Source of the DNA: Phallusia mammillata | Lineage: Eukaryota | Reading direction: 5' to 3' | Length of the DNA stretch: 64,000 bases | NCBI GenBank assembly: GCA_965637545.1 | Contig: OZ281500.1 | Coordinates: forward strand, 19,530,001 to 19,594,000 | Shown here: one piece after another, positions 3,126-47,826 of the stretch | Position numbering within the stretch: position 1 is the stretch's first letter | How the letters are laid out: the number at the start of each line of letters is the position of its first letter | Made by a program: the position numbers and the translations under genes | Notes under the pieces: model-generated | The model's database searches: none | What the model saw: only the letters and a program-made list of their open reading frames with translations | What the model was told of the DNA's origin: nothing

Positions 3126-3590
3126 GCTGAACAACCCCATTTCCGCATGTTCATATTATGCTCCGTTATGTCATGCTGCCCCCTGCAATGGCTATTTTTT
3201 TGGACATAACACATGTAAAGGCTGTGTACAAAATCTGGCCTGCCAAGATCTTTAATCCGATTTGCTAAGCTTTTATCATTAAAAGATTTCACAAGATTAC
3301 TATTGACACAATAGCATTTTTAATGTTATGCACATCTGTACGCTTTTCAGTTAAAAAAATACAAATAGGGAAAAAACCCTAAACGGAAAAGTTTAATAAT
3401 GTACTTTTTATATGGCCGCTTTCCGTATGTTTTCGATTTGGAACAACATAGTTATCAGAGTTTTTTATTCAAAGCTTGTATTTTAAAGGACATTCTCAAA
3501 ACAAGACTGAAACGCTTCAAAATCCTGAAATATAATGTGTCCAAAACAGAAATATTTCGTTTTTTTTAAACCAGCATTATCTTTTGATAG

Positions 3591-23900: not shown

Positions 23901-26900
23901 CCCCTAAATCCCTAAATCACGACTCTGACTTCACAATATAAAAAGAAATGATTCTGACTTTACAGCCCTATATAGTGCCAGTGTAACAGTTTCATATTTT
24001 ATCACAGAGGCGATTGTGTCGTACAAGGAAGAACATTTTCAAGATAGGGAACTACCCATCTTCTATCCACTTTACATGGTGGCTGTCACCAATAACTGTG
24101 AAGCGTTTACTGAGTTTGCTGTCAAACTGCAGGTAAAGCTATATTTTGGAAACTGTGTGTTGCGTTTGTTAACCTTGGGACCGTCGTTTTTTAGCGTGAA
24201 ATGAACGGGGAAAAGGTACAAACTGAAAATCTTAGTTCAGAACTGGAGTTACTTCAGATGGACCGAGAATTTAATGAAATTGAAAACGACAACCCGTTTG
24301 TCAATGATGAAAAAGATGATCCACTAGCTCAGTAAGCAAATAAACACGTTAAAATTAATACCAATGAGGGCAAGACCATACACAAAGTTTTTTATCAATC
24401 CACTTCCTTTCTCTTTTTCAATGCTCTAAGAACGATTTGAAAGTTTTTACAACGAAGTATTGGCTTGTGTATTTCTTATTAGAATCTTTGAAACCGTAAC
24501 TTTCGTACCTAAAATCACTTTCTTTCTATTCTGTCAAAAGCTATCTGTATAAAAGTTAAAGAAAAAAAAGAAAAAAGCTTTTTTAACTAACGTTCCCTAG
24601 CCTAACAAACACGTGAATTTTACTTTATGATGTAGATTCCGTCGTGAAATGGACCAAGTAGCGCAAGCTTCGTGTGGTTACTTGCTAGATGAAGTATTTC
24701 TTGATTTAAAGGTAGCTCTGGGTTTCATTTTGTATCATCTTATGTAGTCTCGTACTGGAGTCCTTAAACAACGCCCGATTAACGCAGTTTATCGTGCCCT
24801 TACAGTATTGCTTGAATTTGCTTTAATAAAACGTAAAATAAAGCAAAAATTGCTTCGCGGGGTCCAGCATTTTTTTGTAAAGTTATCCTGCCTGCTGTGA
24901 AAAGAAATTTGACTACCCCTATTCTGCATTCGGCCACATTATTAGGACCAAGGTTGGTTTAAAGCTGTTACTTAATACCTTTTCAATATTATTAGTTTGT
25001 CTGTTGGTCTTGAGCTTTAATTCAAGCTTAAAATCTGTTTTTAGACTCATTGTACATCCCTATTTACACGCTCGTGGCTGACGGACAGATCTGCTGTCGA
25101 CACGATTTGCGTCACAATCGAGGATTATTACACCGACTACGTCCATTTAAGGCCCCGGTATTTCGCTTGGATCATGCGAGAAGCTGAACGCCGAGTGGTT
25201 GTGGAATATTTGAGGGCTGTGCTTGGAAGGTTTGTGTATTACACGAAATTATGCCAGTTGTGGTGTATTCATTTTATGCCGCATTGTGCTACAAGCAAAA
25301 ATGACCGCCGAATATATAACTACTAATAACACCATAACTCTCGTCACCACAGTATTTAACTGAATTTCGATAGGTGGCGCAAAAAACTAAAATATTTATC
25401 TAAAGTGGATTTGGATTAGGAAGCAAGTTTTCAAAAATATTAGATTAGGTAGTAAGTTTCAAGTTTGTTGTATCAAATTTGTAATGATAGGTCCCAAATA
25501 TCCCTAACATTTAGCATTTTAGAGATATGCCGTTTTAAATGGTTATTCGTGCTTTTTGCGCCATCTGTTGAAGTTCAATTAAAACTGACATGAGATATGG
25601 CGGCAGTAAATTTGCCCATTATTTTACCCAAATGCATATGATGTATTATTTCACTCAATTATCACCCATAGATATTATTTTAGGTTAGGCTATGCTGTTT
25701 CCAACGTTTTGTCAAGCAAATTGTTTTCAAATTGTCACACATAGATAGGTATCCAGAGTTAGAGCTTGCAAATTTAAATTTTTATTCTCACGGACCCCTG
25801 CAGGTTTATAATGTATAAAAAGCCCATACTATCTAAACATCAATAGTGCGTGAAACACAGCACACCGCATAAAAACCAGGCCTCAAGTTCTGGTTTGTGC
25901 TTGAAAAAGAAAAAAAAAGAATTTTATAGTCAAATTCAATTAAATGTGAATGTCATGTAGCAAATAACAAGAATTAGAAAAACAACGCGTTTTTGTACCT
26001 CACAGACGGATTAAGATGAACAACCAATCAGAACGGGCAAAGGCCGGTGAAAAGCTACTGCAAGAGCAACAACTTTTGTCCTCCCTGTTCAAAAAACTTC
26101 ACCAGCCTGTGGTAAGTTAAACTCTGTTGTGAAAATGTCATAAAAATTCATGCCCTAAGTCACTGCATACGCCCCACAGAGGGGGTGGAATTTGGTTTTA
26201 GGACCTAATCAAGATATTTTCCAAAACTGTTTTGTTTATTTTTTTTCTCTTTTATTGATGTTACGTATTTGGCAGCTGGTTTAAACAAAAATACTTGATT
26301 TTTGAAAAGGTTCAACCATATTTTCCCGCATAGGGGCATTAGGATTTTTGGTCAAATATGTGTGGCGTGGACAAAACAAGGTTTAATAGCACTGCCCTAA
26401 ATTAATCAAGGAGTAGAAAGAAATAGATTTTAGCTTTTCAAATAGAGATTCGCTAATATTATTGCTGGGTCATTTTCCTGTTGAAAAGCATTTTGTCTAA
26501 TATTCTGTACTTATTACAAATAGAAGTTTATGCTGCAGTACACCTGAAAAAGGCTTGTTTTGTTTTTCACTCTATCATCCATTTTTTTTCTACTTCACGA
26601 TTCGAGTTTGTGAGATTGAAAGTACCATAGTATATGATTCCTACTTACAACATCAGGACATGTATTTCAGGGCCCATCGCCTTGTGAAGCACTGATTCCG
26701 ATTGCTGAAGTAATAAAACTCCAAGATAAAAGCATGATGTCTTTAGAATTGTCGGTAAGTCGAAGCAATTTGTTCAATAGTTAGACCTAACACACAGGTA
26801 TTTAACCAGGGGTAAAGTTGCTCAGCGATGCGACGAATTTGAATCTTTTAAACCTTCCAAAGGCGTTTAAACGAAAAAAATATGTTTAAAAGGTTTGATC

Positions 26901-29263
26901 ATAAATTAGAGTGTTCAAGAAAAAGGCCTTTTGCCAATGCCACCATCGCTTTTTAAGTCTATTTCGGCCGTTTTTCCTCATTAAACATATGAGCAGATCC
27001 GTGTTTAAAGTTCTGTGGAATTGAAAAAAAATCCTTCCAGGGCCTTGTCAACAAATACAATGATGCCACTGTAGAGCAGCTTACAGCTCTTCTAGCAATC
27101 AGAGGGGACTTTTCGGCTTCCGATGCAAAAGAGGTATGGGCCATAGTGACGTATCAACTGCGCTTGTTACGTCACACAGTGCATGTGATTGTGACGTGTG
27201 AGTTTGGCATGTGGGAATTTCCCCGGACATTTTTCGTTTCAAGGGTTTACGTTTTTACTTTTTTTGTTTCGATTGCCTGCGTTTGCACGTCAACCAATCG
27301 CGTCGCCTGCTTGCCTGCCACGCCCCCTATCTCGACCAATAGCTGGCCGAGGAACTTAAGATGGACAGCCGCGATTCGTTGACTGATGATAGCGAACCTG
27401 AAGTGAGGTTGTTTATCGACGTTGATTCGGCACCTGCCACCGGATTCTTCAGCAAATAAGTCATAACGATTCGCGTAAGGCATTTTTTAATGATTTCTAT
27501 GTTTTAAATACTTTTAGTTTAAGCAATTCTTGTGCATATTTGAACAGATTTTTTTCTTTAGATTTATTTAACCAGGTACTATTTATTAAGGTGTAACATT
27601 TCACATAGATTTTCTCAGATTAGAATATTGTAATTTACCTTTTTTCTTCTATGAAGTTGTTCGGTTTAGGTTTCAAACCTATTTTTTTAGTCTTGGGGTT
27701 TGCTTGTGAATGTGCTTCCTCATCATTTTGCCTGTGACTTCGATGATTGGCATGAATCAGATTAGTTGAAACAAATTTCTGATCCATTGGTTTTGCTTTA
27801 GTTTGATCCTATTATACAAAACTATACTTTTTTTAAAGCAGTATATACCAGTTTTTGAAGGAACGAAAATGTTATGGCTCTAGGTCAGTGCTCTTCAACC
27901 TTTTTAGTGGCACGGAACCCTCATGGTGTTTTGTCAAACTTTGCGGAACTCCCATAAAATAATTTTAATGTAATACAAGTATCATAGAAAAAACATGCAC
28001 AAGACTGTGTTTAATACGTCACAATTGATCAATGGTGTAACCAAGGTTAACTAGATCAGTGTTTTTCAACCTTTTTGAGCCACGGAACACTTTATAACTT
28101 ACATTAAAATATGTTTGCGGAACACCAAACGAAATTTTGATGCAATGAAAAAACTATAGGCTCAGGGTGACACTAAAACGCTAAAACGCACATCACGTAA
28201 TCACTAAAACGGATGAAAATGCTCATATAGCGCTATTAAAGTTGGGGGAAGTTTTACTAAATCGTATCATTGAAACTAACATTGTACCTACTAAATACAA
28301 TATTCGCCTAGTACTGACTGTTCCGTGATTCATCGTTTTCCTCGCAAGCAATTATGCTGAACGTCAGAAAATTTGTTGAATCTCGTGTCGACTGAGACAG
28401 CGTTTAAATATTATATTATTTTTAAACAACACTCAAAGCTAAATTGCACCAACCGTCAGCAATTTACCCGCGATTCAGCTATTTCATTATGAGTCTTAAT
28501 ATTACACAACAGTAAATGAAGCCAATCACTACAGAACATTCCAATCGGGGATGGCGGATAATTATTTTCATAAAGGAAAACCTATTTCCGCCTATTGTAT
28601 TAAACCAGTGATTTTCGACCGGTGTTTAACAACACAATTCAAACCATAGAAGTCTAAAACATTAGAATCCTATATTCAAACCAGCAAATTTCTCGCGGAA
28701 CACCTGACGATCTTTCACGGAACACCAGTGTTCCGCGGAACACCGGTTGAAAATCACTGAACTAGATCGTACGGGCGAGCATTGCTGTTCACAACAATGA
28801 CATTATGAATCATTCATGTTTGAATTGCGAATTGCTACTCCGCGGAACCCCGGTTGAAGAGCACTGCTCTAGGTTCAAATTTTAAAACATGATAATTTTC
28901 TGGCCGGCAAAGTCTATGATAGCGGCTATTGTTTTAGGATGTCTAGAAAAGTGCCAGTTTGTACAGGTATTTTTGCATCATTCAACTTTTGTACAGTTTT
29001 AAATTGCTTGTAATATTCAAGATGAAACCATAGTGACATGGTTTGAACCACAAGAGCTTTGCAATCCATACATATCTCACTTAACGTTTTGTCCACGTTT
29101 CCAGCTTTGCACTGAAGTTTGTGAGGGCGAATGGAGTAGTAAGACACCAACCAGAAAATCAAGTGGACTTTACAAAGCCGCAGCGAAGTCTACTATCAGC
29201 AGTGTTCCAAGCTCAAATATATCAACTTCTATTTTCAGTCGGTTTAACCGATTTATTGAATAA
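17912..29263 (+). CDS. EXOC3: Exocyst complex component 3 (Sec6), ~770 aa
   Basis: Signature [73 protein letters not shown]. 19 exons: 17912-18046, 18637-18806, 19284-19413, 19662-19793, 19997-20106, 20781-20894, 21352-21541, 22075-22150, 22391-22490, 22947-23112, 23639-23726, 24008-24132, 24258-24331, 24636-24711, 25045-25229, 26006-26111, 26671-26754, 27041-27133, 29105-29263; total 2313 nt, in frame. Confidence 0.96.
20282..20556. mobile_element. hAT MITE
   Basis: TIRs CAGGGGTGGGCAACCT / AGGTTGCCCACCCCTG; 8-bp TSD CTGTAAAT. Confidence 0.92.
25350..25587. repeat. Imperfect ~36-bp inverted repeat, probable old MITE
   Basis: cagtatttaactgaatttcgataggtggcgcaaaaa vs tttttgcgccatctgttgaagttcaattaaaactg. 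Confidence 0.5.
26161..26394. mobile_element. Old hAT MITE
   Basis: Ends cactgc.. / ..gcactg with imperfect TSD CCCTAAGT/CCCTAAAT. Confidence 0.45.
27886..28866. mobile_element. hAT MITE with a nested relative, in the last EXOC3 intron
   Basis: TIRs CAGTGCTCTTCAACC / GGTTGAAGAGCACTG; 8-bp TSD CTCTAGGT. Confidence 0.92.
28057..28759. mobile_element. Nested hAT MITE
   Basis: TIRs CAGTGTTTTTCAACC / GGTTGAAAATCACTG; 8-bp TSD AACTAGAT; subterminal CGGAACAC repeats. Confidence 0.9.
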
Positions 29264-31376: not shown

Positions 31377-34300
31377 TCATAGGTTGCATCGGTTAATACA
31401 GATTTGTTCGCTAATTCTAGCCGAAAGCATATCGTTTAGTCCTTCGAATCCCTCGTTTGCAATGAAATAATTGCTGCGATCCCCAACGATTTCTCTCAGC
31501 CCGTCGTCCAATTCGTCAACTCCAAGTTTACCGCTTGGCGGCATTACTCCAATGCCAAACATCTGCACACATACACAATTACACCGTACTGGTCACCTAA
31601 TGGCTGTAAAAATGCATTGCCACACACTTAAACATGTGTGTGTGTGTGGTGAAACCTCGATTTCATGGCCAAGAGTCAAATTTTGAATCGCCCCGTTTAA
31701 ATGAGCTCAATGTTTAGAAACAGTCAATAGTTTTTGTCAAGACGCTATAACGGAGAACAAAGATATAAGATTTTTTGTTCCATATGTGCTAAGGTTTTCG
31801 TGGTTGATATGAATTTGAAACTTTCACGTATTGTGGAAATAGTTTTTTTTTCCAAAAAATTTATTTGCTTTTATTCTCATTATTTTTATGGAACAAAAAT
31901 TTTAATTTTGTTGTTGAAAACTTTGAATTTAAATTTTGATTCAACAAAGTGATCTCGTTGCTTACCAAGACTCCACGCTTCCTTAGGTCCACAGAATCGA
32001 ACTCTACGGGGTCTTTCTCTGATGTTTGTCCATCAGTAATAATAATAATCACGTTTTTCGCATGAAGTCTGTCGCCCGTCGTTTCGTTAAATACCACATC
32101 TCGGGCATGACGTAACGCCCGTCCCGTATAGGTGGCTGCAAATACACGGTTTCCAACAGTTAAATCCCCTCGTGATGCTTGCAAATTGTGCTTACCAGGA
32201 ACCTATAGAGCTATTACGTATTTTTTGTCGTTTTCGGAACTTACATGAAGGCCTGTAATTCATTTTTCCGACCGCTTCCAAAAGGCCTTCGCCGTCTTCC
32301 GAGTAATCGTTGAGAAGGATTTGGGATCTCTTGTTTGGCCGCAGACCGAAACTAAACACTGCAAATTGTGTCGCATCGGGTGATACTTCGAATGTCCTGC
32401 AATATTTTGTTTGGTGAAAGAACATATAACTCGAACACTAAAATGTTGTTGTTGGAACTTGTAAGTGGGGTAGCTCTAACGTCTAGATGTCAGCGAAGGG
32501 GTGTGTTTTTTCATGATTTTTATGGAAATAATTTCAAGGAAGCGAAGTTATTTGCAATCCTGTACAGTTTGAACCTTTTTGCCTGTTGTTGTTTTTGTAT
32601 ATATATATGGTCATTTAAAAAGGTACATTTCGGGGGACACGCATAAGCGCAAAGTTTTCAGTTGCCTTATAAGTTATAAGTATGATGTGAGCTAAGGTAC
32701 AGTGTGAACATTTGCTTACTTGATGATGCTTTGGGCAAAATTGATCATAATTGGCCAGTTAGATCTTCTTACTGACAATGATGAATCCAATATAATGCAA
32801 GCATCCATAAGCGCATGCGGTGGACACGACCCTGCGTAAGCAAGATCACGGTCTGAAATTTGCTTTAAATGCGTTCAAAACGTCCTGCTAGTTACAAAAA
32901 TCAATATAGTACATGCGGCATACAGAAGGACTTACTCGCGCAGCACGGTTTTGGCTTATCCCACTTCGGTAGGGGATCTTGTTGTCTTTCGCACGTAAGG
33001 GTGTCGCTTTGACGCGGATAAATCTCGTATTCCTCTTGTAGACAGTGGAAATTGCATTTCGACCCAAGGTAGAACTCATCGGTGCATTCAAATTCTCCAA
33101 GATTAATGCTTGGCACGGCGTCACAAAGCTTAGCTACCAGAAAAAAGTAAAATGGTTTGATTTACAGTAGAATTCGTGTTATTAAGTGTGCTTTGTACTA
33201 ACGTAAACATCTTGGAATGTCACCGTTCCAGTCAGCCAAGTTCCCTCTTTTCTGACACGTAACCATCTCGGGACCAGCCATATCGTATCCTTAATGTTTG
33301 ACAAGAAAATGAATATGTAAGCTGTTGCTGCCAGGCATGATATCTACTTTATAGAGCCTATTTGGTAATTGTATTTTTGTACCAACATTTTGACGTCCTT
33401 TACAGGTCGCCTTCATCAGGGTAAATAACACTGAATGTTCGTTTAGTTGTAATGTACCTCTTATTTGCCATGCAATTTGGGTAGGAATAGGGTGCGTTTT
33501 TATATGTCTTGATACAAAAGAAATTCTTTCCATTGTGGGACATGGACATTAACATAATTCTTCTAAACATTTGTCATTGAACACTACTTGGGCTTATGTT
33601 TTCTTACCTTCATCGCATTGGTAGTAACATTGCGCTCCAACTTCGGTGGTCGTTCTTCTAAAGTCACACGTTCGTTCGCCGTTCTTGGGTTGATGAAGGT
33701 AGGGACATTGCAGCACAACCGGCCCTGCAAACCATCAAGAAATTGTAACATTTTGCAGGTTTCATGTTGTGGTTTGTACCCTGTCCATCAATTGATACTA
33801 TGAGATGAAATCAAAATGCCTGCCAACGCCATCGGCAATGTATGAAGACCTATGGACATACGATATAGGTTTTGTGTGCTTAACAGTAGGTACCTCGACA
33901 TGACACCGCTGGTCCGTTACAGAAGCTTGTCAAACAGCAACATCTACAAACTGAACTTGGGGCTCGTGTGTTGCATTGGGATGGAAACCACGCCGGTCTT
34001 GGATTCTATGTTGAAAAAAGGCGTAACTTGTAATAAATCTCTCGATTGTAGTTTGAGATGTATGATTAGTATGAAATCTTAAAAACGTTGCATGCCAACG
34101 GTATTATTCATACCACAGGTGATGCCCAGGGCTAGAAATTCCAATTTACAACGAACCCACTTGGTTCTGCACTAATTAAACGCCAATGTTTAGTGTTTAT
34201 ATGAATGAAAAACATGAAGCGCACATTTCAAACATTACATTGGCATAAAATCGCTTTGTTGTTTTGATGCTAAGCCTGCATTGTCAGTGTGTAAAGTTTG

Positions 34301-35918
34301 AGGTTGTGTAACACTCAAACTGACATTTTAACATTCGATTTAATTCTGCTCGGCAGAAAATAATTTCTAGCGATTCTGGTGAACGTGCAGCCCGTCAACC
34401 TATCAACCGCAAACTAAGTGTTTTTGTTAAACTAAAACTTTCAATCGGTTTGTTGGATTGGTACAGGTCATAAGGTTATTTTTTTTCTGATTTTTGAAAA
34501 AAATCCGCTGAAACTAATAAAGAGGGCTTAGACCTTTCGCCCAAGGAAACTGTAACAAATTAACAAAACAGATGCTCATGGGCGTTTATTGTCTTTCGAG
34601 GTAAATTAAATAAGCTGATATTTGCTTTTATTATGGCATGTACTTGAAAAAAGTTGTTTCCGCATGCGTTTGCTTGCTTGCACGTTTTGGTGATAAATCG
34701 TCGATAACCGCTTCTTCTCACTTCGTTTTGGCAAGCTTCCTGCAAAAGTCAAAACTAGTTAATGACGCACAGTTTTAATTGTCATTTAACGGCATGGAAA
34801 ATAGGTATGTTCCAGCGCACGTTTTTGCAATTAATTTTTCAGATTTCTTTGTTAGAATGATAGTAGATTTTTTGATGAAAATAACGGCCCAAATAGACGT
34901 AAAAACGACATGCTTTATTGTTCAAACGTTTCACTTTTTGCTGTTATTTTCATCATTAAACTTATAATTGGATGCGTACATAGCGTTCCAATAATAGATT
35001 TGTATTCCCAAATTCGCTACGCAGTTTCGGGAATTGTAAATATTCACCTAACTTCGTAATGCGTCTTCTATACTTCTTGGGCTATGATGTGACTTGCTTG
35101 ACATAATTAAATCGTGTTGCCACCAAGCAAGTGTATGTTGTGGATGTCTTGCACGAGTAGGCGGTTTCGCGTTAGTCATTACAATACTACACCAATTCGT
35201 GGCGTACATGTGCCAGGTATAAATTTGGGTAACAAACATTGCCAGAATGTTTTAATAACAGTTGCTGTCTGCCTAAAGATGGTTTATCGTTAAAGTTTGT
35301 TCCGACGTGGTTAAAAAAACATATAAATTTATCATAGATTTTCTTCCCTTTATTATATTATGTGGTTTTTAATAAAATGAACACAGTTATGTTACAAACA
35401 CGGCACATACCTCGTTTTGAGCGCATTTCTTTATCCTTCCAAAAATAATACAGTGTCTGTTGGTTGGCTGATTTTCGCAAACGAAGCAATTGATACCTGC
35501 AAATAACTTGAATAAGACTTGTACGTATTCAAGTACGTATAAACTTAAATAAGATTAGTAAGTATATACATGTAGTTAAAACAGTTTGTTTTTGGTTCAA
35601 ACTTTAACAGACGTAGTAAATAAGTTTCGTAGAAAAAGAATATGCTCAAAATTAGATAACTGCAATGTGATTGTATTTTTCCAATACTCTTTAAAGTTAC
35701 AATTCGGTGTGTAATGTCGATCAAAAAAAGATCGGAAAGAAAGAACATAACACACTTATTGTTTTTTCGTCAAACTTTACGGTTTAGCGTCAATTTTAAC
35801 ATTGCACTAAAATAATCACTTTACCGCGCAGCAATACACACGAACGCAATTAGCGAAGCTTACCTGCAGTACAATGTGTCAACCATGCTAAACTCAGTAA
35901 AAGAATCAGAAACCTCAT
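31377..35918 (-). CDS. Secreted Ly6/uPAR-like - 2xCCP(sushi) - vWA protein, ~456 aa (short paralog)
   Basis: 11 exons (minus): 35918-35864 (signal peptide MRFLILLLSLAWLTHCTA), 35496-35411, 34739-34644, 34005-33894, 33724-33608, 33289-33203, 33133-32936, 32831-32720, 32396-32245, 32135-31966, 31562-31377; total 1371 nt. vWA motifs ILDSSLS, TYTGRAL, IIITDG. Confidence 0.88.
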
Positions 35919-37554
35919 GATGGCTTTTTATTATCAATGTCACTGCTCAGTGCTTCTCTAGGCTGTAATCCGCCCTTCTGAGGGTTTGACTTGAATCCAT
36001 GTAGACCAAGAGATGGTGCAGCACGTATTTAAAGCCATGCGCACGCTTGCTTGGCGGCGCATGATTGCCGAAATGACGCCAAAAGTTTTTTTGATATCGT
36101 TTTCAATTTCGTAACTGCTAAGCTTCCTTATCCACTTTAACGATAAAACGTTAAAGCTAGTATTCTTCAATCTTTTTTCTTAGTTTTGTGTTTACTTGTA
36201 TAGGCCTAATGGAAAAGGCTGCTCTTCGTAGGCATTGTGCCAAATATACAGTGCTTTTGGTAGACATTACTAAAAGTTTATTGGCTTTTTTGGATGGAAT
36301 GTGAAGTTTGGACCGTGTGGTTGGATAATTTTTGTTTTTGCGTCATTAGGCTCTCCCACTAATAGCAACACGATGATGTTGGCAAACCAATACAATGTTG
36401 GAAATTACTTTAACAATACACTGTTCTAAATGCAAATTTACACAAACAGCGTGTTGCATGCAGGCGTATAAAGTATGTGCACGAATTGGCAATGTTCTTT
36501 GGTCGCTTTGCATTTGCGTGATGGTTGTAATTATGCAGTTTGACATAAAAAATCAGTCAATTAGTCAGATCAATTAAACAGTAAAGTATGTCGTTTGATC
36601 CCGAAGCAGTCACCTTGCTTATTTGCAAGCGAGCGACGATATTTATGATACGTTTGATCTTATTACAGTGTATTTTTACTTAAAAGATTTTGTGTAAATA
36701 GTTATCTTCCTAAAACCAATTTGGTTAGCTTTTTTAGGTTTTCTTTGCAACGATCATGCGCTGTTGGTCAATGTGGCACTACTTTAGCCCCCGCGACTCA
36801 AAGACGCCTCTGAGTGTACATGAAACCTAGAACAGCCATAAAGCATATGTTTTTCAAATCCAAGTTTTACGTGCGACACCTTACATTACTAAATATTTCG
36901 TCGTTAAAAACAGTAGCCTGTCAAGAAAGTTTGATATTTTTTTAGCTCTCTGCGGCATGTAAATTAAAAGCCAAAAAAATAAAATGTGCCGCAAAACTAT
37001 TAAATCCCAGCTCCTGTTTAAAGCGTCGTGGAAAATTTTGTGATATAAATCATTATTCAGTGAGCGGTGCCGATCGTTGACATATGGTTCGTTAGTTTTG
37101 ACAGTTTTTTTAAGTTAAAATGCGCTCTTAATCTATATGAAGTTGTTGTTTTGTTGTTTTATACTATGGATTGCAAGCGTATACTGTGAATTTCTACTTT
37201 TAAATATGGTTAGCTAAATCTTTTTAAGTTTAACGCCTTAGGCTGCTGCAATTTTGTTGAAACAAAGCATAGGATAGATCTTCAATACATAGATTTTATT
37301 TGTTTGAAAAACACCGACATCAAATAATGGCTAATATGTTTTGGCAAGAGGCGATTTCTTTGTCTAATATAGATACATGTACGCAAAAAGAGGAAGGCAG
37401 CTCAGCTTGAGCATTCTCAACACCGCTTTAAAGAAAACACCGCGAAAAATGCACATAACTTAGAATAGGCTCTATGCTTTGGCGGCGAAAAAAGATGTAC
37501 ACCTCAAATATATTAGTGCGTTATGGTTGTAAATTGATTCCCTTGGTAAACGCT

Positions 37555-40500
37555 TTAACCGGCAAGTTCAGCCTCATCGTGCTCATGAGCGTCGAAGCAA
37601 GGGTCACCACAAATCTGTGTGGCAAGCTGGGACGAAAGCGATTCACCAAGATCGGCGAAACTTCCCTCAGCGATGAGAAGCCTGCTTGGGTCTCCGGCGA
37701 TTTCGTTCAACTGGTCTAAATCAAGGGCGCCTACTGGGGGTTCGATTCCAAGTGCGTATGTCTGCAAGAAAAATGCCCGTTAGTTCTGTGATATAATTGC
37801 TTATACTCTGTTTGAGAGGTATCTTACCAATGCACCATCGGCACGAAGTTGGTTTGAAATTGCTCCGACATCATCCTGAGAGCGACCGTCAGTGATAACC
37901 AGTACAACGTTCTTGACGCCGGGCCTGTCTCCATTTGCCTCTGTGAAGATTACGTCACGGGTGTAGTTGAGCGCCTGTCCAGTACGAGTACCTGTGTACA
38001 AAAATTGATGTTGTATTAACAATATAATGTATTTTTTAAATTTGAATTGTTTTTTCTGTGCTTACCGGATCCATCGTAAGGGATTTCACCAAATTTAGCA
38101 ATGAAGTCTTCAATGTTGTCGAAATCGTTTAGTAGAATCTGAGAGGCAGTGTCTACAGCCCTGTTGTATCTGTACACGGAAAGTCTAGCCGAATCCGGAG
38201 CAAGGATATATTTTCTGTGAAATAAAGCTATTTGTTAGATTGGTGTTGTAAACTGTTCCGATACTAAAAGGAATCAAATGATTGAGAAAAATAATTGTAA
38301 AAATCTTTTTTTTCAATTGGTTACTTTTCATGTAGACGTATTAGGTAACTTTTTATACTTTGTCTTTGCACTTACTCGAGGACGGTCCTGACGAAGTCTT
38401 GCATGATTGGCCAGTTATCAATTCCGATAGATGACGATGAATCCAGAATAAAGACGGCGTCCATCAAAGCATATGGAGGACAGTCTCCTGCAAACGAACA
38501 AATAAGGTTAACTCGGTTTGGTAATTTTTTGGAGCACAAACTGTGTCGCTTTATGCAACTATTACTTCAACGGAAGCGACATGTGCTTCAGGGATGATTG
38601 CAAGATAACTATAACTTACTTGCGCAGCATGGTTTGGGCACAGTCCATGCGGTATCGTTAAGGCAAATGTTCTGATCCCGGCCTGGTGGGTAGATTTCAT
38701 ATCCCTCTCCAGTGCACTCGAAAGTACATGTCGATGTGGCGAAATTGTCATTGCTGCATGAATAGTTTCCATGAAGGAGAGTTCCTTGGTCAGGGCATTC
38801 GTTGGCTGTTGCAATACAAGAAAAAATTTGCTGCAAATCATCCGACCAAACAACACCTTTTTTACTAACAACTTAAGTTTCGCGAATTTTATGTGGAAGG
38901 GAAAAAAACTTGGCAGCATCGAAAATCATGCATTCACTGTAATGTTTTTTATTTGTTCCAGTTTTATGGTTGTAATGTGTAAAAATAATATTTGGGTATT
39001 TATTTTATTACATTTACATGCCCTAATTGCTTACGTTGGCAAATTGGAGCTTCGTTGTCCCAGATGAGGTTTCCTTCATTTGGCTCAACACAATTGGTGT
39101 AAAGGGGTCCAACACGTGTGTGGAATGGATCGCAACCGAACTCGCACTCAGAACCAAGGAAGTTGCCGTCGGTACAAACACGGAAGCCATTTTCTGGTGC
39201 TGCTGGTGGAGTGCCACATGTTTTACCTGAAATTAGTGTAACATATGTTGTTTAGTTGAAATCCTTGCTCCTGTGTGAACCTAGGAAGACATGCACATGC
39301 TTAAGAGTTGCAAGAAATAGGATGTTCAAGTCGACAAACACTTGCTTGTCGACTCGCCAAGCGGTAGGAATATAGAAACAACGAGAAGGGAAAAGTACGT
39401 GGCTGCTATATCAAATATGATATAGAAACCTGTAAATAATAAATGTCAACAAGATTTGTTGCGTGCAGAAGTTCAGTATGATGAAACGCTAAAGATCCGA
39501 CGCAAACGTTTGCGTCGGTTATGTTTGCAAGATTCCGGCGTTTCGCCTGGGGAAAGAAAGCAAAGGAAAAGCCATGCGCTTTTCCCAAAGTCCTGTAATA
39601 AAAAATAAGCAAAGAAACATGCTTAAGTTGGAAAAGTTCATCCAACTTGCAAAGGTATTTGAAGAAAAATGTTATGCGTTTCATAACCAAAGCATATGGA
39701 TAATAGGCAAAGCTTAAAAAAGTCATTCCAAGAGGCAAGTGATTTGTTTTGGAGAAGAGCCCATCGTCTTACGTTCACAAGTAGCTGGCGGTTGGCTCCA
39801 AACTCCAAAAGTGTCGCCATTTCCGTCATCTAGGCAGATGGTAGAGGGGCTACCGCCGAGGGTATAGCCTTCATCGCAGGTAAACGTACACTGACTGTTT
39901 ATGCTATTGCCTGCATCGCAGGAAACCAAACCGTTGAGGGGATTGGTCTGCTCCGGCAAACAGACGATCGCTGCAGGAGAGCAATAATACTAAGTTTACT
40001 GGCCTGGTCGTTTGGTGAATGCACGAGCAGTGCAAACTTACGTTCACAGGTTGGCGAAGGATCGCTCCATACACCCAAGGCATCGCCGTTTCCGTCGTCT
40101 AAGCAAGTAACTACAGGTGCACCGACCCTCGCAAAGCCAGCGTCACAAGTGAATGTACAATCGGCATCAACAATGTTACCGTTGGGACAGTCAACCAAGC
40201 CGTTTGTGGGGTTGCTCAGTGGCGGGAGACACACAATCGCTATGTTAAACAATTGGGATTTAATATGACTATGAAAGTACCGGGGAATTGACTGGTCAAG
40301 ATAACCTACGTTCACAAACGGGGGCAGGGTCAGTCCAAACACCATTGGTGTCATCGTTGATATCATCTAAGCAAGTAATAGAGTCTGCACCAATCAAGGC
40401 GTAGCCAGGTTCACACTGGAATGTGCAAACGCTGGTAGCTAAGACTCCGAGACTACAATCCACTGTGCCGAATGTCGGGTCTTGTTGGATGGTGCATACA

Positions 40501-43500
40501 ACGGCTAAAAGAAGGAAACGATTTTTGAAACACGTTTCGACGAAATCGAACTGTGTAATTCAAAAAGAATTAGAGAAAACCTACGGGAGCAAGTGGGGGG
40601 AACGTCAGACCATGTTCCCACAGCATCACCATTGCCATCATCGTTACAGATAAGTTGCGGTGCGCCTTCGAGGAAGTAGTTGGCATCGCAAACGTAATTG
40701 CACGAACTGCCAACGGTGTTGTCCCCGCAAGTAACCGTGCCGAAGGGAATGTCCGATTGTGCAGGACAAAGGATAACTGTGCACAGATGTTGGCGATAAA
40801 CAAGGTGTCCAATCGTTTCGAAACATTATCGTTCTTCTTTGTGTTTTTATAGTAGAACGAGTAGGGCAATTTACTTACGCCTTCTTGCTTGTGTTCTCGA
40901 TAGATAGACCCACGGACAAGGACACCTAGTAAACTACTCTTTACAAAGCATGCAACACTACTCAAGAGATCTAATTGAACGTCGACATATTTGCCTCCAT
41001 AACTAAAATTGGCTACGGTACAGAGAGATCACATATGATGGTGTCGTCATGCCATGAAATACTTACGTTCGCAGGTTGGTGCTGGGGAGCTCCAGACACC
41101 CAAAGCATCACCGTTGCCATCGTCCAAGCAGGTAGAGCGGGGGACTCCTGACATACTGTAACCCTCGTCACATGTGAAGTCACAGTCGCTGGTCTCTCGG
41201 TCATCGTTGCTGCAGCTAACAGCGCCGTTGAGTGGGTCGGTGTGAGGAGGTTCGCAGACAATCGCTATAGTTTAAACCAAAAATGTAATTTGCTTGGGAT
41301 CTCGTAGGAAAAAGAAAATTATGACGAGAAATGCATCTATTAAGCGGGGACCTAAAAAAGACCTAAAGCAAGCGGAGACATCTTACGTTGGCAGATAGGG
41401 GCTGGTGCGGACCAAACACCCGCTGTATCACCATTTCCATCATCGAGACAGGTTGGTTCGGGTTCGCCAAGAAGAGCATAGGTTGGGTCACAAGTGAAAG
41501 TACATACACTGGTTGCGAAGTTGTCGTTCGAGCAGGACAAGATACCGTTTGCTGGAGCGGCCATTGGTGGCTCACAAGTGATTGCTGTGCGCGAAAGTTA
41601 ACAGTTAGGAGGTCCAATGTTTTTAAGGTACTAGAAGATTTTTAACACTAACGTTCGCATGTTGGTGCGGGTGTGGTCCATACGCCGAAAATGTCACCAT
41701 TTGCATCATCAACGCAAGTAGATACTGGTGCGCCGATAAGAGCATAGTTGACATCGCAAGTAAATGTGCAATCGCTTCCTTCGTTCATACCGTCACTGCA
41801 ATCGACTTGGCCGTTGGCGGGATTAGTGTGTGGTGGTGGGCAGGTAATACCTGTATAATCGGTTAAGTTTTACTTTTGATCTATTGGGACTTAATTCACG
41901 TTGGTTTGATGATTTGTCCTCTTGTTTAGAAGAATTTACAAAGTTCTAGTTGTCCCGAACTTTTTAAGATCTTTAAGTTTGTGGACATCCTTGTCATAAA
42001 ATATAAGCATGTTGTTCCTCGGTGCTGTTCGGTGAAAAATGATTACATTATATGGTTATTTCGAAAAATGATCACTTTTAAGTGACACTGTATGACCAGT
42101 GTTTGTTTAAACATAGGTTAGTGTTGTTAGGTGTGAAATATACATGGCATAGTTTTGGTCTTATGCTTAATAAAGACTTTGAGGCCAGTTAATTTGTCAC
42201 TTACGTTGGCAAGTGGGTGCGGGTGAAGACCAGATTCCGATTCCGTCGATGTTCAAGCACTCAGAAGTTGGGGTTCCGACGAGCGCGTAACCAGCATCAC
42301 ACACAAACTCGCATTCACTTCCCTGGTTGTTTTCATCGGAGCAGGTCACTCCACCATTGGTTGGGTCGGTGTGTGGTGGGTCGCAAACGTTACCTGTGGG
42401 GTATTGCATTCGTTTGAAAGGCATTCTATGCAGTTGAAATTGGTAACAGCACTTTTTGTTGTTTAAATGCAACTACAGTCTAACTAAGGTGCTTGAGTTT
42501 AGTTTATTTCGCTTGGTAAAATATGACATAGCTGTGCAACGTTATGGAGCGCAAAACAATGGTTGCACAACTGGTGGATCAATCATAGCTAAACGCGATG
42601 CTAAATAATACCGTACTTCACAGCTTAGTATCGTAGGTCTTTTCGACTATGAGTTTCAATCCGGAAACTAAACCATCATAGTTAACATTCAAAGAATTTG
42701 CGTTTACCTTTTAAATTAAAAGCGAAGCAACCTTAAAAAAATGATGTTACCCATTTGGATTAAGCTCGCAAATTGTTTGTGCTGCTTAAAAAACTAACAA
42801 ACGTTTACAATCGTCAAGATAAGCCTACACAAATCTTACGTCGGCAACTGGGTACATTGTTGGTCCAAACTCCTTGAGCATCATTGTCGTTGTCATCCAC
42901 GCATACACGGTTTGTGTCTCCGATAAGGGTGTATCCGGCATTACAGGTGAATCTGTTCAGAAAATACCAGTTTCATCCAATACATGCCCACCACAACAGA
43001 TAAAAATCCACCAGGATAAGTCGTTGAAACAAGTTATGTAGTCATTCTGTGACTACTGTTGCTGGGTCGAGGAATTACAGTTGTTTATTTGTATTTTGGG
43101 GCAAAGCATTCTGCACAGTAATAAACTTAAAAGTATGTATTTGAAAAAATTAAAGGTGCTGTTTTTCCTGGTCTAATGATCTCACTCATTAGTTACATAG
43201 AGTGACAAAGTTTAACATGTTAAATGAAGAGTAAGTAGTTACAAAACTTACGCGCAGTCGCTTCCCAAACGGTTTCCATTCGAGCAGCCGACGGCACCGT
43301 TTGTTGGTGGGGTCTGGGGTGGTGGGCAAGTGATTGGAGGACAGATTGGTGCACGGTTGTTCCATCTGTTGTCCTCTCCTAAAAAAATTCAAAGTTTGAT
43401 GAATTCACAAATCATTTGCCCATTTCAACACACAAAGAAGCTTCGTTTAAACTTTTACAAGAGTTCAAAGTTTTCACTTAGCCTACTCAGTAATCTACTT

Positions 43501-46500
43501 ACCGCAAGTGGTTGAGCTGCTTCCTTGCAAGAAGTATCCTGCATCACATGTGAATTCGCACACGCTTCCAACAGTGTTTCCGTTTGTACACGACACGCCT
43601 CCGTTGAATGGGGCAGCTTGTGGTGGTATACATCTGGTTGCTAAACGGAAAGTTCTTGTTATATCAACTAGCTTGTATTTAGGATACAGTCCATCTTTTT
43701 ATCGCTCGGTCTATTAGACTATCTGAGATGCTCTTTAACAGGCAAAGTGGGAAAAAGTTTACGTCTGATCTCGATTTAAACTGATGTCATGTTACTTGTA
43801 TTTCAAAACCACATTTTGTTTTTCAATCTATCCTTTGATTGCTCGAAGCTTAAAAATGTCTTTTGACGACGAATGTGTCGTTAAGCCTTATAAAATTGTG
43901 TGCATTGCCATATTGCGGAATCTATATCAAAATCTTACGTCTGCAAGTGGGCGCTGGTGAGCTCCAGGTTCCGACTTCATCGACAACACCGCAAGTGGAG
44001 ACGACTTCTCCGACCAATTCGTAGCCGGCGTTACATCTGAAAGTGCAGTCGCTTCCGTCGTTGTTGGAGTCGGTGCAGTCAACACGTCCGTTTGCGGGGT
44101 TGGTGTGGGCTGGGGTGCATCCTGCAGGACAAACAAATGGTTAAATTGTGGCAGAATTGTGATCTGTAAAGTGCTACAGAAAGGCTGAGCTGGTTAGACA
44201 GGATTTTGCACCGCCCATGTTACCAATGCTAATTGCTGTTCAAATTATATCGATCATTTGTATCAAACCCATTGTTGAGAAGCAGCTTGCCCTTGGGCAA
44301 AGCAGTTTTGTTCCCACACGTACCACGCCAAGTGTAATTACAGAGAGTCTGCTGAGCCCGGTGGTTGAAGAATTACCGAGCAGTAACCGGTGTGTTTCGT
44401 GATTATTGCTAATTTGACGTTTGCTGATTCATGAACCGCTCCTAGTCATTGCTTCTTGTACCGACTGAGCCCGTGAAGAGGCACCAATCAACTTTAACCG
44501 GCAATAACGAAACCCATGATATGTCTTAATTGACAGGCTGTGCCCCCGCGGCCCACAAGGCGTATTTCACACCTTTCCTGGCTATTAGCGAACTAGAGAA
44601 GGCACCAATGTTCGCTTCCTAATCGTAATGCCTAATAATAAAATCTTACTGGCTCCAAGGCATCCGAGCAGGGGCTTGTTGCACTCGTCGGTATTACAGC
44701 AACATCTGCATACGGAGTGGGGAATGTCCAAGTTGCATTGGCTTGGGAACCACGCAGGTCTGGGGTTCTGTAACAAAACTTCAATTGAAAAACACCTCCG
44801 TTTGATACAATGTAAAGTAAAAATTTGTCCGATGTTGCTTAAAAGAAGCAGAATGCCTTTACGTTGCACTCTTTAAATTTTGCTGTCTACGTTTGTATGT
44901 TGATGCTGGAATATTGAGTTTCAGTCTTCATTTACCTGGATAAAGTTGTTGTCGCATGCGTGTGCTTGTTTGCAACGTTTGGTGATTCTCAATCCTTGGT
45001 TGTCTGTTCGCACTTCGTTCTGACAAGCTTGCTGTTGATTTTAAAGTTTCATGATTAGTTTCTGAACACGATTTGCCTTATACCGTTCAACGTTATAGGT
45101 TCATGAAATTTCATGCTCATTTAGCGAAGATTAGCATGCAGCTAACTTTGCCACGCAGAGTAATAATAAGTATCGTCAAATGGCTGCAACTGGCAGCCAC
45201 AATAACAATGACGCTTTATTGACTTTATGCACGTTCAGCCTATAATTTAAGGCTATGCTGCTGATAAAAAAATGCCTAGCCTGAGGCCAGAGAAGCAAAA
45301 AGTCTTCTTTGTGTAATCTCTAACAATTAAGCGCATTTTGATGGCGACAAAATTATATTTTTGTAGTTACCTGATTGACTTGACATTGCTTTAGTCGACC
45401 ATTCTGCATACAAGCTTCGTTGCTTCTCTGATTTTCGCAAATCCAGCATTGAAGAGCTAAACAAAATATTCGTGTGATTATTTAGTTGTAAATGCCAAGC
45501 ATTTAGAGTGACGTTATGTTTTGTAAGCCCAAAATGCGTTCAGTATGATTTTCTTTGCCCACAGAATCAACGTTATTCCTAAGATTTCCGCTTATCCTAA
45601 AAATAGGATCATTTTTGCGTTTGCTTTGCCTATATGACGTATCGCAGACCTTCCCGATTACACCATCACAAAAATAAAACGCGATGCGCCGTGACCATAT
45701 TAATCCAATAACATCGCGCACTTCATCCTAGGGCTATTTGTTGTGTCTGCGTCATGTTTGTACGTAGAATCGTTCGCAGAAGCTAAGATGTTTGTGGAAG
45801 TAACGCAAGGGCTCGATTATGCTGCCGGCACAGTGTTGATTGGAAAGAAATGTCTATTTGAGTTTGTTTTAGAACAATTCTTCTTACCCATATCAGACAG
45901 CTCATTTTACTTAAGGTAAGTCAACGCTTTCTTATACTACACAGCCTGTACATGTAACAAACATTTATCTAATCCTATAATCAAGTTACAAAAATTAAAA
46001 AAGGGCCTTTGTATTACATGCGAGATACGTGATGTTCATATTTTTTGTTGAATAGCTTTCGTTTTCGGTTTGTAATGCGCTTAGGCGTATAATTTAAATT
46101 GCTCCAGGTGCTTTTCATGCCTGGTTGTCTGTACGTCGCGTTTGGTTTCAATTACGTTGAAGTCGACGTTTTCGAGTGACAAAAAAAATTATAAGACAGA
46201 CATTCGTATTCCCTGGTTAAATATTTCGACTATTTATGATTCTGCGCTTTGCGATTCCCACGTTTAAAATACCGGACATGTTACGTTAACCTCCGTCTTC
46301 GGCTGTATTTATCGTAACATTTTTACGCTTTATAATTAAAATTGTTTTGCCAAAAATTTAAAGATCAAAGACGAAAAAATGGTTTAGGCTTAACATCGAT
46401 ATATATAATAAACATTTTACCAAATCTAAAACAAAACTTTAAAAAATGGGCAAAAAATCTACTCAAATCTTTAAAAAAAAATAAAAAAAAACGTAAACTG

Positions 46501-46560
46501 CATACCTGATGTTGAAAGAACAAGTGAGGTAAAGACGGCGACAACACTGTAGAACTTCAT
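37555..46560 (-). CDS. Secreted Ly6/uPAR-like - 13xCCP(sushi) - vWA protein, ~1163 aa (long paralog)
   Basis: 22 exons (minus): 46560-46506 (signal peptide [19 protein letters not shown]), 45456-45371, 45031-44936, 44767-44650, 44121-43939, 43640-43503, 43378-43252, 42952-42840, 42393-42205, 41850-41653, 41584-41387, 41264-41067, 40776-40585, 40504-40310, 40239-40042, 39970-39773, 39226-39035, 38805-38620, 38487-38376, 38214-38066, 37991-37828, 37761-37555; total 3492 nt. CCP consensus C..P.NG...C..C.F.CD.GY.L.G....C..W..P.P.C; vWA ILDSSSS, TRTGQAL, VITDG. Confidence 0.9.
42495..42620 (-). repeat. Dispersed SINE-like repeat, partial copy 3
   Basis: gagtttagtttatttcgcttggtaaa...aacgttatggagcgcaaaa is the reverse complement of the 3' part of 5967-6250. 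Confidence 0.6.
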
Positions 46561-46621: not shown

Positions 46622-46825
46622 CTTATATACTATAAGACGGAGGCGTATCATCCAATAGGGGATCACCATACTCCCGCCAGACCGGTCGCCTTTTTTCCGT
46701 CTTCTCTGACCTGGTCAACCAGTTTTTGCCTGCGCCCGGCAATGTCACGTGATTCGCTCTTGTCAGACGTTTAATTAAGTTTGTCGGCGAATGAGATCGA
46801 TCGAATGCGGATTAATAATCACGTG
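46622..46825 (-). promoter_or_regulatory. Putative promoter of the long LU-CCP-vWA gene
   Basis: TATATAAG (minus, 46622-46629) ~60 bp upstream of the ATG; two TCACGTGA E-boxes (cores 46746-46751, 46820-46825); locally CpG-rich. Confidence 0.5.
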
Positions 46826-47707
46826 ATCGCTTTGGCCTTTTTGCTGTCACCTGGAGGGCGACCAGGATAAACACTGGCTTCGACTAACGCAACATGCTCA
46901 AGCTACCAGAACTTGACAAGGCTTTATGAGCTAATATAATTTATTTAGAAACATTGTTTAAACAAAGTTTACAAACATATGTTGAGTAATCTTTTGCAAA
47001 TTCTGCACTAAATTTTGGTTGAAAAAATAATTGTAACTTATATCGAAAATCGCGTCTTAGATTTCCCGCGTGGCCTGTGTTAAATCTTGGCACTGGTTTT
47101 GTGGCTTTTTGGATTATCTGAAAGTGGCTCCTTCGCAATGGAGTCTCTTTTTCAGGACAAGTGGCGAAAATTTTACGTCTAATCCCGATTTAACCTGATG
47201 TCATGTTACTTGTATTTCGAAACCACAGAACTAGTTGATGTTCTTGTTTTTCGGCCTGTTACTGGAAAACGGATTAATTTGCATTTTGTTTTGTTTTTTC
47301 GTTTCACTGACCTGAAATCTTGAGGTCGTTCTAGTTGTAGCGATTAGCGGGAGACCGATGGCACATTTGCATTTCGTGTTGTGTTACAGGATACATCGTC
47401 GGGATTACCCAATTTTTTTATTACGGATGATAAAATACTTGCGTTTATCAAAATATTTCAAAATCTTGCCTAACCCTTGTCTACACATAATTATGTATAT
47501 AATATATAAAATTATAATATGTTAAACTTTAGTTAAGTATATTTTCAGTAATACACAATCAGTCTGTGTTTTTCGTTGTGCGATGTAACATATAAAGATC
47601 GATTTCGACGATGATTGGCATCCTTAATTATTATTCGAATAGAATAATATAACATTTTCTTGTTGTTTGCAACCTAGTTACTCAGAATATTATCGTTGAA
47701 TGCTTTT

Positions 47708-47826
47708 AGAATAGATGTCTCCGTGATGATGGCATGAGCATTGGTCGAAACGTCTGAACAATAAAGCATGTCGCTTTTTTGCGTCTATTTTGGCCGTTGT
47801 GTTTCTCTATGAACTTAAGAATAGAT
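47708..47826 (+). mobile_element. Truncated Penelope-like pLTR relic with a degenerate minimal hammerhead
   Basis: 9-bp direct repeat AGAATAGAT (47708-47716, 47818-47826) flanking GTGATGATGGC...GTCGAAACGTC followed by AATAAA. Confidence 0.6.

Follow-up and report, generated by a model that had tools for sequence, protein, structure and literature searches.

Two adjacent genes on the minus strand of the Phallusia mammillata genome, which we call A and B, encode secreted proteins with a Ly6/uPAR-like three-finger (LU) head, an array of complement control protein (CCP, or sushi) modules and a C-terminal von Willebrand factor A (vWA) domain. They occupy positions 31377 to 46560 of a 64,000-nucleotide stretch of contig OZ281500.1 (positions 19,530,001 to 19,594,000), referred to below as the window. 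The gene pair is real and intact, and it belongs to a sizeable LU-CCP(n)-vWA family that is apparently undescribed and misnamed. The analysis directly gives the order of the domains, the three-finger fold of a close homolog's head, the intact metal ion-dependent adhesion site (MIDAS) of the vWA domain and the absence of a protease or membrane anchor. What the proteins do is a more tentative matter, and we consider a cross-linking role in the extracellular matrix more likely for the family than a role in complement.

Gene A (37555..46560, minus strand) has 22 exons and encodes a very acidic protein of 1163 residues (isoelectric point 4.05) with a signal peptide, the LU domain, 13 CCPs and the vWA domain. 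Gene B (31377..35918, minus strand) has 11 exons and encodes 456 residues (isoelectric point 6.65) with the same layout and two CCPs. Both models were built from the minus-strand sequence and homology rather than from cDNA; the ATG of gene A lies at 46560 and the stop of gene B at 31377, exactly the limits given by an earlier reading made from the sequence alone. Spliced by coordinate, the two genes have GT-AG borders at 31 of 31 introns and no internal stop, and LU, CCP and vWA profiles account for 97% of protein A and 93% of protein B. The signal-peptide exon (46506..46560 in A, with an N-terminal hydropathy of 1.76; 35864..35918 in B) is 55 nucleotides long and ends in phase 1 in both. The three Cys-rich exons measure 86 and 96 nucleotides in both genes, each ending in phase 0, and then 118 (A) versus 112 (B), ending in phase 1. 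The vWA exons follow the same pattern, with 112 nucleotides in both (phase 2), 149 versus 152 (phase 1), 164 versus 170 (phase 0) and a final exon. Two minus-strand paralogs with matching exon phases in these three parts, and with 13 and 2 CCPs, were what the sequence-only reading had described, and the spliced models bear it out. A TATA-like box, read by eye, stands at 46622-46629 on the minus strand, about 60 bases upstream of the gene A ATG, and single AATAAA/ATTAAA signals follow the stops by about 250 (A) and 190 (B) bases.

Neither protein has a transmembrane segment after the signal peptide, the highest 19-residue hydropathy past residue 25 being 1.26 in A and 1.02 in B. The C-terminal tails are polar in both, with no glycosylphosphatidylinositol (GPI) signal as judged by hydropathy alone. 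A trypsin catalytic motif was not found in the 2259 six-frame stretches of the window, a scan that a motif split by an intron could escape. Downstream protease or anchor exons were also considered and rejected: the stop follows the vWA domain in both genes, and the tails of homologs are 0–38 residues long. The anchorless, protease-free architecture proposed earlier is supported. No third paralog and no extra LU, CCP or vWA exon was found elsewhere in the window.

The third LU exon, used as a query, returned one protein, a Clavelina model named "P-selectin-like" that is 50% identical to A over 721 residues. The last CCP and vWA domain of this model returned 25 proteins, and a profile of 23 members returned 60; all 42 of those named by organism are ascidian, the named matches coming from Ciona intestinalis, C. 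savignyi, Phallusia, Clavelina and Styela. The full LU-CCP(n)-vWA order is present in 34 of 44 named proteins examined: 11/11 in Clavelina, 10/10 in Styela, 13/19 in C. intestinalis (some redundant between assemblies) and 0/4 in the Phallusia and C. savignyi entries, which look like fragments. An exhaustive hidden Markov model (HMM) search with an LU profile gave 385 representatives at E ≤ 0.001 and 153 at 1e-10; the best 150 comprised 50 LU-CCP-vWA, 18 LU-CCP and 8 LU-vWA proteins, 3 other mixes and 71 with neither partner. Members from the HMM search, seven further named proteins and the two window genes make up a set of 57 proteins (55 from databases) with the full order and 1 to 25 CCPs, which supports the variable-length spacer suggested earlier. 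There are about 10 family genes per ascidian genome, and database relatives reach 76% (LU) and 60% (vWA) identity to gene A. The earlier proposal of a lineage-specific multigene family is upheld insofar as all organism-named members are ascidian; because the named search depends on shared words and the HMM library carries no taxa, these sequence searches support an ascidian-specific family without proving it.

The automatic names of the members are mostly P-/E-selectin-like or SVEP1-like, just as the sequence-only reading had predicted, and these models (for example, Ciona XP_009861089.1 and XP_002125315.1, Clavelina LOC143450401, and the 52-member ESM Atlas cluster "P-selectin-like") are LU + CCP(n) + vWA proteins of the same family. 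The names are misleading, and the precomputed Pfam lists of these entries omit the LU head. Selectins (P, E and L) share the six-Cys CCP array as a spacer, whereas A and B lack the C-type lectin domain, the EGF domain and the transmembrane segment and have an LU head and a vWA tail instead. SVEP1/polydom has an N-terminal vWA domain together with HYR, EGF and pentraxin domains; A and B carry their vWA domain at the C-terminus and have no space left for the other three. What A and B do have are the hallmarks of the ascidian family: a 14-Cys LU domain, six-Cys CCPs, a last CCP with an extra Cys and a Cys-flanked vWA domain.

The LU domain spans 44650..45456 in gene A (exons 45456-45371, 45031-44936 and 44767-44650) and 33894..35496 in gene B (exons 35496-35411, 34739-34644 and 34005-33894), both on the minus strand. 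The two domains are 57% identical and carry 14 Cys at identical positions. All 14 are invariant in an alignment of nine homolog LU domains, and among them is the ten-Cys Ly6/uPAR core that ends in CC-x4-CN, its terminal CN included. Pfam was scanned with 27 single exons of the two genes, and the first Cys-rich exon of each gave a weak match to Toxin_TOLIP (E about 0.02, below the cut-off); four of the nine homolog domains match the same entry, one of them above the cut-off. Against PDB sequences, a profile of the nine homologs places LYPD1 first (E 2.5e-7), followed by LYPD6B and LYPD6. The fold was modelled on the LU domain of a homolog, P0004, to which the LU domain of gene A is 76% identical, and not on the window's own spliced domain. 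In the AlphaFold model (predicted local distance difference test, pLDDT, 75; predicted template modelling score, pTM, 0.66) the same three proteins rank first by Foldseek, and VIA-align gives Z 9.2 for LYPD1 (root-mean-square deviation, rmsd, 2.5 Å over 84 aligned residues), 8.9 for LYPD6B (4.1 Å, 85) and 6.3 for CD59 (2.9 Å, 72). Searched alone in the ESM Atlas, the head gave leads below 0.8 and nothing higher.

As modelled, the head is a three-finger domain of the LYPD1 type that gains one Cys pair and, by prediction, a helix in finger III. The three-finger head of the sequence-only reading is thereby supported; within that fold, LYPD1 and LYPD6 are nearer than CD59. LYPD1 (Lynx2), LYPD6 and LYPD6B share the fold and an extra finger-III disulfide pattern with the family, and are single-domain, GPI-anchored receptor modulators. 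In contrast to LYPD1, LYPD6 and CD59, proteins A and B are multidomain and soluble, end without a hydrophobic C-terminus and have a head with 14 Cys and the predicted finger-III helix.

The CCP array occupies 38620..44121 in gene A (CCP1-13, 14 exons), where introns split CCP2 and CCP3 and the other modules are single phase 1-1 exons. In gene B it occupies 32936..33724, with CCP1 on exons 33724-33608 and 33289-33203 and CCP2, of the last type with an extra Cys, on 33133-32936. In the Pfam scan, Sushi was matched by all 11 single-exon CCPs of A (10 above the curated cut-off), and two of the three CCP exons of B were scanned, both matching below it. Across 32 family proteins, 189 of 225 CCPs have six Cys and 33 have seven, the seventh being mostly a linker Cys; linkers are 4 residues long at 169 of 193 junctions, all 12 of gene A included. 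Six-Cys CCPs are of the selectin/SRPX type, while factor B and the complement regulators have four-Cys CCPs. Single CCPs of the family do match CR1, DAF and MCP, with E-selectin in the same list, and these matches are generic. Regulators of complement activation (factor H, CR1, DAF, MCP) have arrays of four-Cys CCPs as their main or only module, whereas the family CCPs are six- or seven-Cys in 222/225 cases and flanked by LU and vWA domains.

The last CCP is a distinct type with a conserved position, and its extra Cys is kept in most members. Compared with 24 homologs, the last CCP of A matches their last CCP best in every case (24 of 24), and the last CCP of B does so in 21. The middle CCPs of gene A resemble one another (0.50) more than they resemble those of other proteins (0.36), a tendency seen in 16 of 17 long members, and CCP number differs between close sisters (12 vs 10, 4 vs 3, 6 vs 4). 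Since most gene A CCPs are also single phase 1-1 exons, this likeness indicates that exon duplication within the gene lengthens the rod. An acidic loop, CxDDx[DN]xDxxGxW, is present in eight of the 13 CCPs of gene A (window 39773-43378, minus strand) and in 24 of the 225 family CCPs, with none in gene B or in the Styela members examined. The shorter pattern D.[DN].D occurs nine times in the gene A CCPs against 1.06 ± 1.04 in shuffled sequences, none of 1000 shuffles reaching nine. Dx[DN]xDG loops are a Ca2+-binding motif, and by this likeness we would guess that the acidic loops of gene A bind Ca2+.

The vWA domain lies at 37555..38487 in gene A (exons 38487-38376, 38214-38066, 37991-37828 and 37761-37555) and at 31377..32831 in gene B (exons 32831-32720, 32396-32245, 32135-31966 and 31562-31377), again on the minus strand. 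The two are 39% identical, and VWA was matched in Pfam by two of the four exons in A and three of four in B. The MIDAS reads D-S-S-T-D in both genes, intact as claimed before, and is intact in 42 of the 57 family proteins, the other 15 including truncated models. Three Cys flank the domain and, together with the extra Cys of the last CCP, persist in most members; all five flanking Cys of the family are present in A and in B, as in most of the 57 proteins. In gene A the domain ends in a short polar tail and the stop. In seven one-CCP proteins (P0061, P0074, P0091, P0096, P0101, P0118 and P0141), His replaces the first Asp of the MIDAS, and other MIDAS positions are changed too; in this subgroup the metal site or the ligand may differ.

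Among PDB sequences, 118 match the vWA domain, and the best 60 of these include mussel byssus PTMP1, which has two such domains (E 2e-21), collagen VI as the best single-domain construct (E 1e-8), the I domains of integrins alpha-X, alpha-E, alpha-1 and alpha-2, Toxoplasma MIC2 and vWF. Factor B and C2 are absent from these best 60 of 118 and from the best 60 of 94 in a further list. We also examined an AlphaFold model of a whole homolog, P0009 (LU-CCP3-vWA; pLDDT 89, pTM 0.56), whose vWA domain superposes on those of collagen VI, integrin alpha1/2 and vWF A3 at an rmsd of 1.6–3.4 Å and 25–26% identity. Collagen VI A-domains and PTMP1, the closest solved vWA domains within the best 60 of 118, belong to secreted matrix adaptors, and matrilin clusters appear as Atlas leads at 0.75. 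Matrilins have the order vWA-EGF(n)-vWA-coiled coil. Compared with matrilins, collagen VI and PTMP1, the family has a single vWA domain, an LU head, a CCP spacer and a short tail, and no EGF domain, coiled coil or collagen helix.

The family is built from well-known modules through ordinary domain shuffling, and domain-shuffled vWA adaptors are already known; the more surprising lead is the head, which is shared with other proteins. A Pfam scan of 53 LU matches, picked mainly because CCP and vWA left them unexplained, found globin, carbonic anhydrase, EF-hands, WSC, thyroglobulin, TSP1, fn3, EGF and vWA as partners, with no Pfam match in 12 of the 53. The 14-Cys head is fused to globin in P0055, carbonic anhydrase in P0082, EF-hand in P0080, WSC in P0105 and EGF in P0045. 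By these sequence matches, the LU head is a mobile module. Ten positions (R55, K65, K68, Q69, N75, N76, Q79, N80, Q89 and R100) are 80–98% conserved in 107 near-complete LU domains with the extra-Cys motif, and they are kept at similar levels in 49 LU-CCP-vWA proteins and 58 with other partners. No conserved acidic residue was found among these 107 domains, the best Glu column reaching 57%. This conservation of Arg, Lys, Gln and Asn suggests a constant binding site for an anionic ligand.

One cargo bears on a described protein. The Ciona globin Gb-4 (CinHb4) has been described as consisting of a signal peptide, a 133-residue "uncharacterized sequence" and a globin (PMC10650076). The LU + globin protein P0055, of the same size, fits this description, with a globin as cargo rather than CCP-vWA. 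The LU head thus likely explains the uncharacterised N-terminal part of Gb-4. CDD contains a three-finger model that bears the name of CinHb4, and the LU domain itself is therefore probably catalogued already.

The history of the pair was approached with a quick maximum-likelihood tree of 32 proteins (LU + last CCP + vWA, leaving out rows with a partial LU or vWA), in which 12 of 29 inner branches remain open. Gene A clusters with Ciona and Clavelina proteins of 6–12 CCPs (support 89), while gene B sits on a long branch (1.51) within a group of poor resolution, although its highest-identity row is gene A (46%). A recent A/B duplication is not supported, as B is a long branch and not the sister of A in this tree; the tandem arrangement would reflect either an old duplication or one after which B diverged fast. 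At the DNA level, the genes resemble each other only in two short exon stretches (73–75%) and a 52-bp non-coding repeat. The latter is an inverted repeat, 90% identical, between 34883-34932 in an intron of gene B and 47747-47798 upstream of A. A non-coding direct repeat of 83 bp (87% identical) links 43731-43813 in an intron of gene A with 47145-47227 upstream of A. These dispersed short repeats are possibly remnants of small mobile elements.

We infer a bridging function from the sequence, and our leading reading, to which we give not quite an even chance, is that A and B are secreted two-ended adaptors of the ascidian extracellular matrix, their span determined by the sushi rod; the ligands, the shape and the tissue are conjectural. 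Such proteins would be monomeric or weakly oligomeric and would work in the tunic, in mucus or adhesive secretions, or in the basal lamina. At one end, the C-terminal vWA domain would bind Mg2+ or Mn2+ at its MIDAS and capture an Asp or Glu of a matrix or cell-surface protein, in the manner of collagen VI-, PTMP1- and integrin-type A domains, with the conserved Cys joining it rigidly to the last CCP. At the other, the LYPD1-type head would bind a second target, probably anionic (a sulfated or phosphorylated glycan, for instance), through its conserved Arg, Lys, Gln and Asn. The six-Cys CCP array with its 4-residue linkers would form an extended rod between them, about 7–8 nm long in B and 45–50 nm in A at 3.5–4 nm per CCP module, and the acidic DxNxD-type loops of gene A may serve in Ca2+ binding or in keeping this rod extended. 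The rod would be resized as symmetric phase 1-1 exons duplicate, so that paralogs would link partners of the same kinds across different distances.

Several points weigh against this adaptor reading. An intact MIDAS does not name a ligand, A1/A3-type domains of vWF bind without one, and, with the His-MIDAS one-CCP proteins in the family, not every member works through this site. The conserved polar residues of the head may be structural. The domain arrangement in the AlphaFold model of P0009 lacks confidence (pTM 0.56), and the case for an extended rod therefore comes from the length of the linkers and from precedent. An immune role would account equally well for the expansion to about 10 genes per genome and for the rapid divergence of gene B (branch 1.51). 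Moreover, no family member is tied to a ligand, tissue or phenotype, and 11 member identifiers (5 RefSeq, 6 UniProt/LOC) are absent from 11 supplementary files of PMC13225635.

An immune role could take the form of soluble opsonins or pattern-recognition bridges, with one end on a microbial surface, the other on haemocytes or deposited C3, and paralog diversity widening recognition. The proteins are secreted, some 10 paralogs per genome have divergent vWA and LU sequences, and MIDAS A-domains of integrins alphaM and alphaX bind iC3b, the alpha-X I domain being among the best 60 of 118 vWA matches. A sushi/vWA-labelled gene, possibly a member of the LU-CCP-vWA family, marks circulating phagocyte-like cells in Botrylloides (PMC12212465). 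The conserved residues of the head, however, are common to proteins bearing globin, carbonic anhydrase and EF-hands, which have no obvious immune role; this points to an unvarying ligand of the host and away from diversified recognition. We consider opsonins rather unlikely. A narrower complement role, in which protease-less derivatives of factor B/C2 or complement regulators occupy C3b through CCP-vWA and block convertase assembly, is more doubtful still, and we regard it as very improbable. Factor B and C2 do share secretion and CCPs directly before a MIDAS-bearing vWA domain with A and B, single CCPs match CR1, DAF and MCP, and, as no more than a lead, the Atlas cluster "Complement C2 (Fragment)" ranks second by features at 0.86. 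Ranked by E-value, C2 and factor B also top the Foldseek list of whole P0009 (E about 1e-20), yet at 16–18% identity, a TM-score of 0.28–0.30 and an rmsd of 32–36 Å. With these values, the ranking reflects domain order only, and at a pTM of 0.56 the inter-domain geometry of the model is too uncertain to exclude factor B-like packing. Proteins A and B differ from factor B and C2 in lacking the serine protease, in their six-Cys CCPs and variable CCP number, and in the added LU head, which is nearer to LYPD1/6 than to CD59; factor B and C2 are, moreover, missing from both sets of best 60 sequence matches given above. C2/Bf proteins have been described with the order CCP-vWA-trypsin and one CCP-only exception (PMC11312191). 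Descent from factor B is an unlikely origin, as only the domain order speaks for it. Overall, the fold, family, spacer, labels and lack of protease and anchor in the sequence-only reading are supported, while its complement framing is not: the resemblance to complement looks superficial, given six-Cys CCPs, a LYPD-type head and a vWA domain nearest to those of collagen VI, PTMP1 and integrins.

Two further alternatives concern the head. In one, the proteins would be matrix-tethered signalling modulators: the vWA domain would anchor the head to the matrix at a set distance, and the head would engage a receptor or growth factor (nicotinic receptor, LRP6, BMP/TGF-beta). In keeping with this, LYPD1, LYPD6B and LYPD6 match the head best in both sequence and fold, and TGF-beta/BMP receptor ectodomains appear lower in its match lists. 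Identity to LYPD1 is just 30%, though, and a common three-finger fold does not imply function. The NxI motif at the tip of LYPD6 finger II binds LRP6, and this Asn-Ser-Ile loop aligns to a variable loop in which the family lacks NxI. We consider signalling improbable. A similarly low probability goes to self-assembling filaments or nets, in which the head of one molecule binds the vWA domain or head of the next and the spacer sets the mesh. Constant ends around a variable rod, and the co-occurrence of LU and vWA in proteins without CCPs too, are consistent with such nets; the head, however, has no conserved Asp or Glu to complete a MIDAS (best Glu column 57%, as above), and its conserved residues are kept with other partners, in many proteins without a vWA domain. 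A predicted complex of LU with last CCP + vWA and Mg2+ (P0009, alignment not used) scored 0.00, which weighs neither way.

A broader extension of the adaptor reading, which we consider unlikely, would make the 14-Cys LU domain a lectin-like tunicate "address tag" that sends secreted cargos to one polyanionic matrix, with the LU-CCP(n)-vWA paralogs as graded molecular rulers. The cargos would be the globin, carbonic anhydrase, EF-hand, EGF and vWA proteins, and the target a cellulose/sulfated-glycan tunic or the feeding mucus; rulers of 1 to 25 modules would cross-link this matrix with cells or protein fibres and determine how wide its mesh is.

Elsewhere in the window, a multi-exon Sec6/EXOC3 gene on the plus strand (about 17900-27400; two exons match Pfam Sec6) is convergent with gene B, and a mucin- or FCGBP-like gene lies further upstream on the same plus strand (about 3500-12500; WxxW, VWD and TIL/TILa exons). 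Between 47000 and 64000, no obvious protein-coding exons were seen among 30 open frames of at least 75 residues, a stretch for which no Pfam scan was made.

We found no description of the LU-CCP-vWA family in open-access full text; Boltenia Vwa1/Ccp, Ci-vwa1c, Ci-sushi (KH.C11.274) and Ciona adhesive proteins could be members. Ascidian genes labelled P-selectin, SVEP1, Ci-sushi or vwa1c are reported from papillae, anterior endostyle, oocytes, siphons and tail regression, and proteins with vWA domains as top changers at settlement; neither the former nor the latter could be tied to the family (PMC3390340, PMC12212465, PMC4109947, PMC6337849, PMC11312191, PMC4523013, PMC9953650, PMC10650076, PMC8495957, PMC9265791, PMC13225635). 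"Sushi domain-containing" entries in the supplement of PMC13225635 could likewise not be assigned to it.

The "P-selectin" and "SVEP1" of Ciona tail regression, the Styela endostyle, and Botryllus oocytes and siphons may partly be members of this family, and correct annotation removes an apparent selectin or complement signal. In this family the three-finger fold, familiar mostly from toxin-like or GPI-anchored proteins of one domain, is put to use in soluble multidomain proteins, and its head module is common to unrelated secreted cargos. If the adaptor or ruler model is true, the family would offer a testable handle on the assembly of tunic, mucus net or larval glue. If the address tag is also real, a three-finger domain would be serving as a glycan-binding module that can be moved between proteins, and it would open a way into the assembly of the tunic or filter net.

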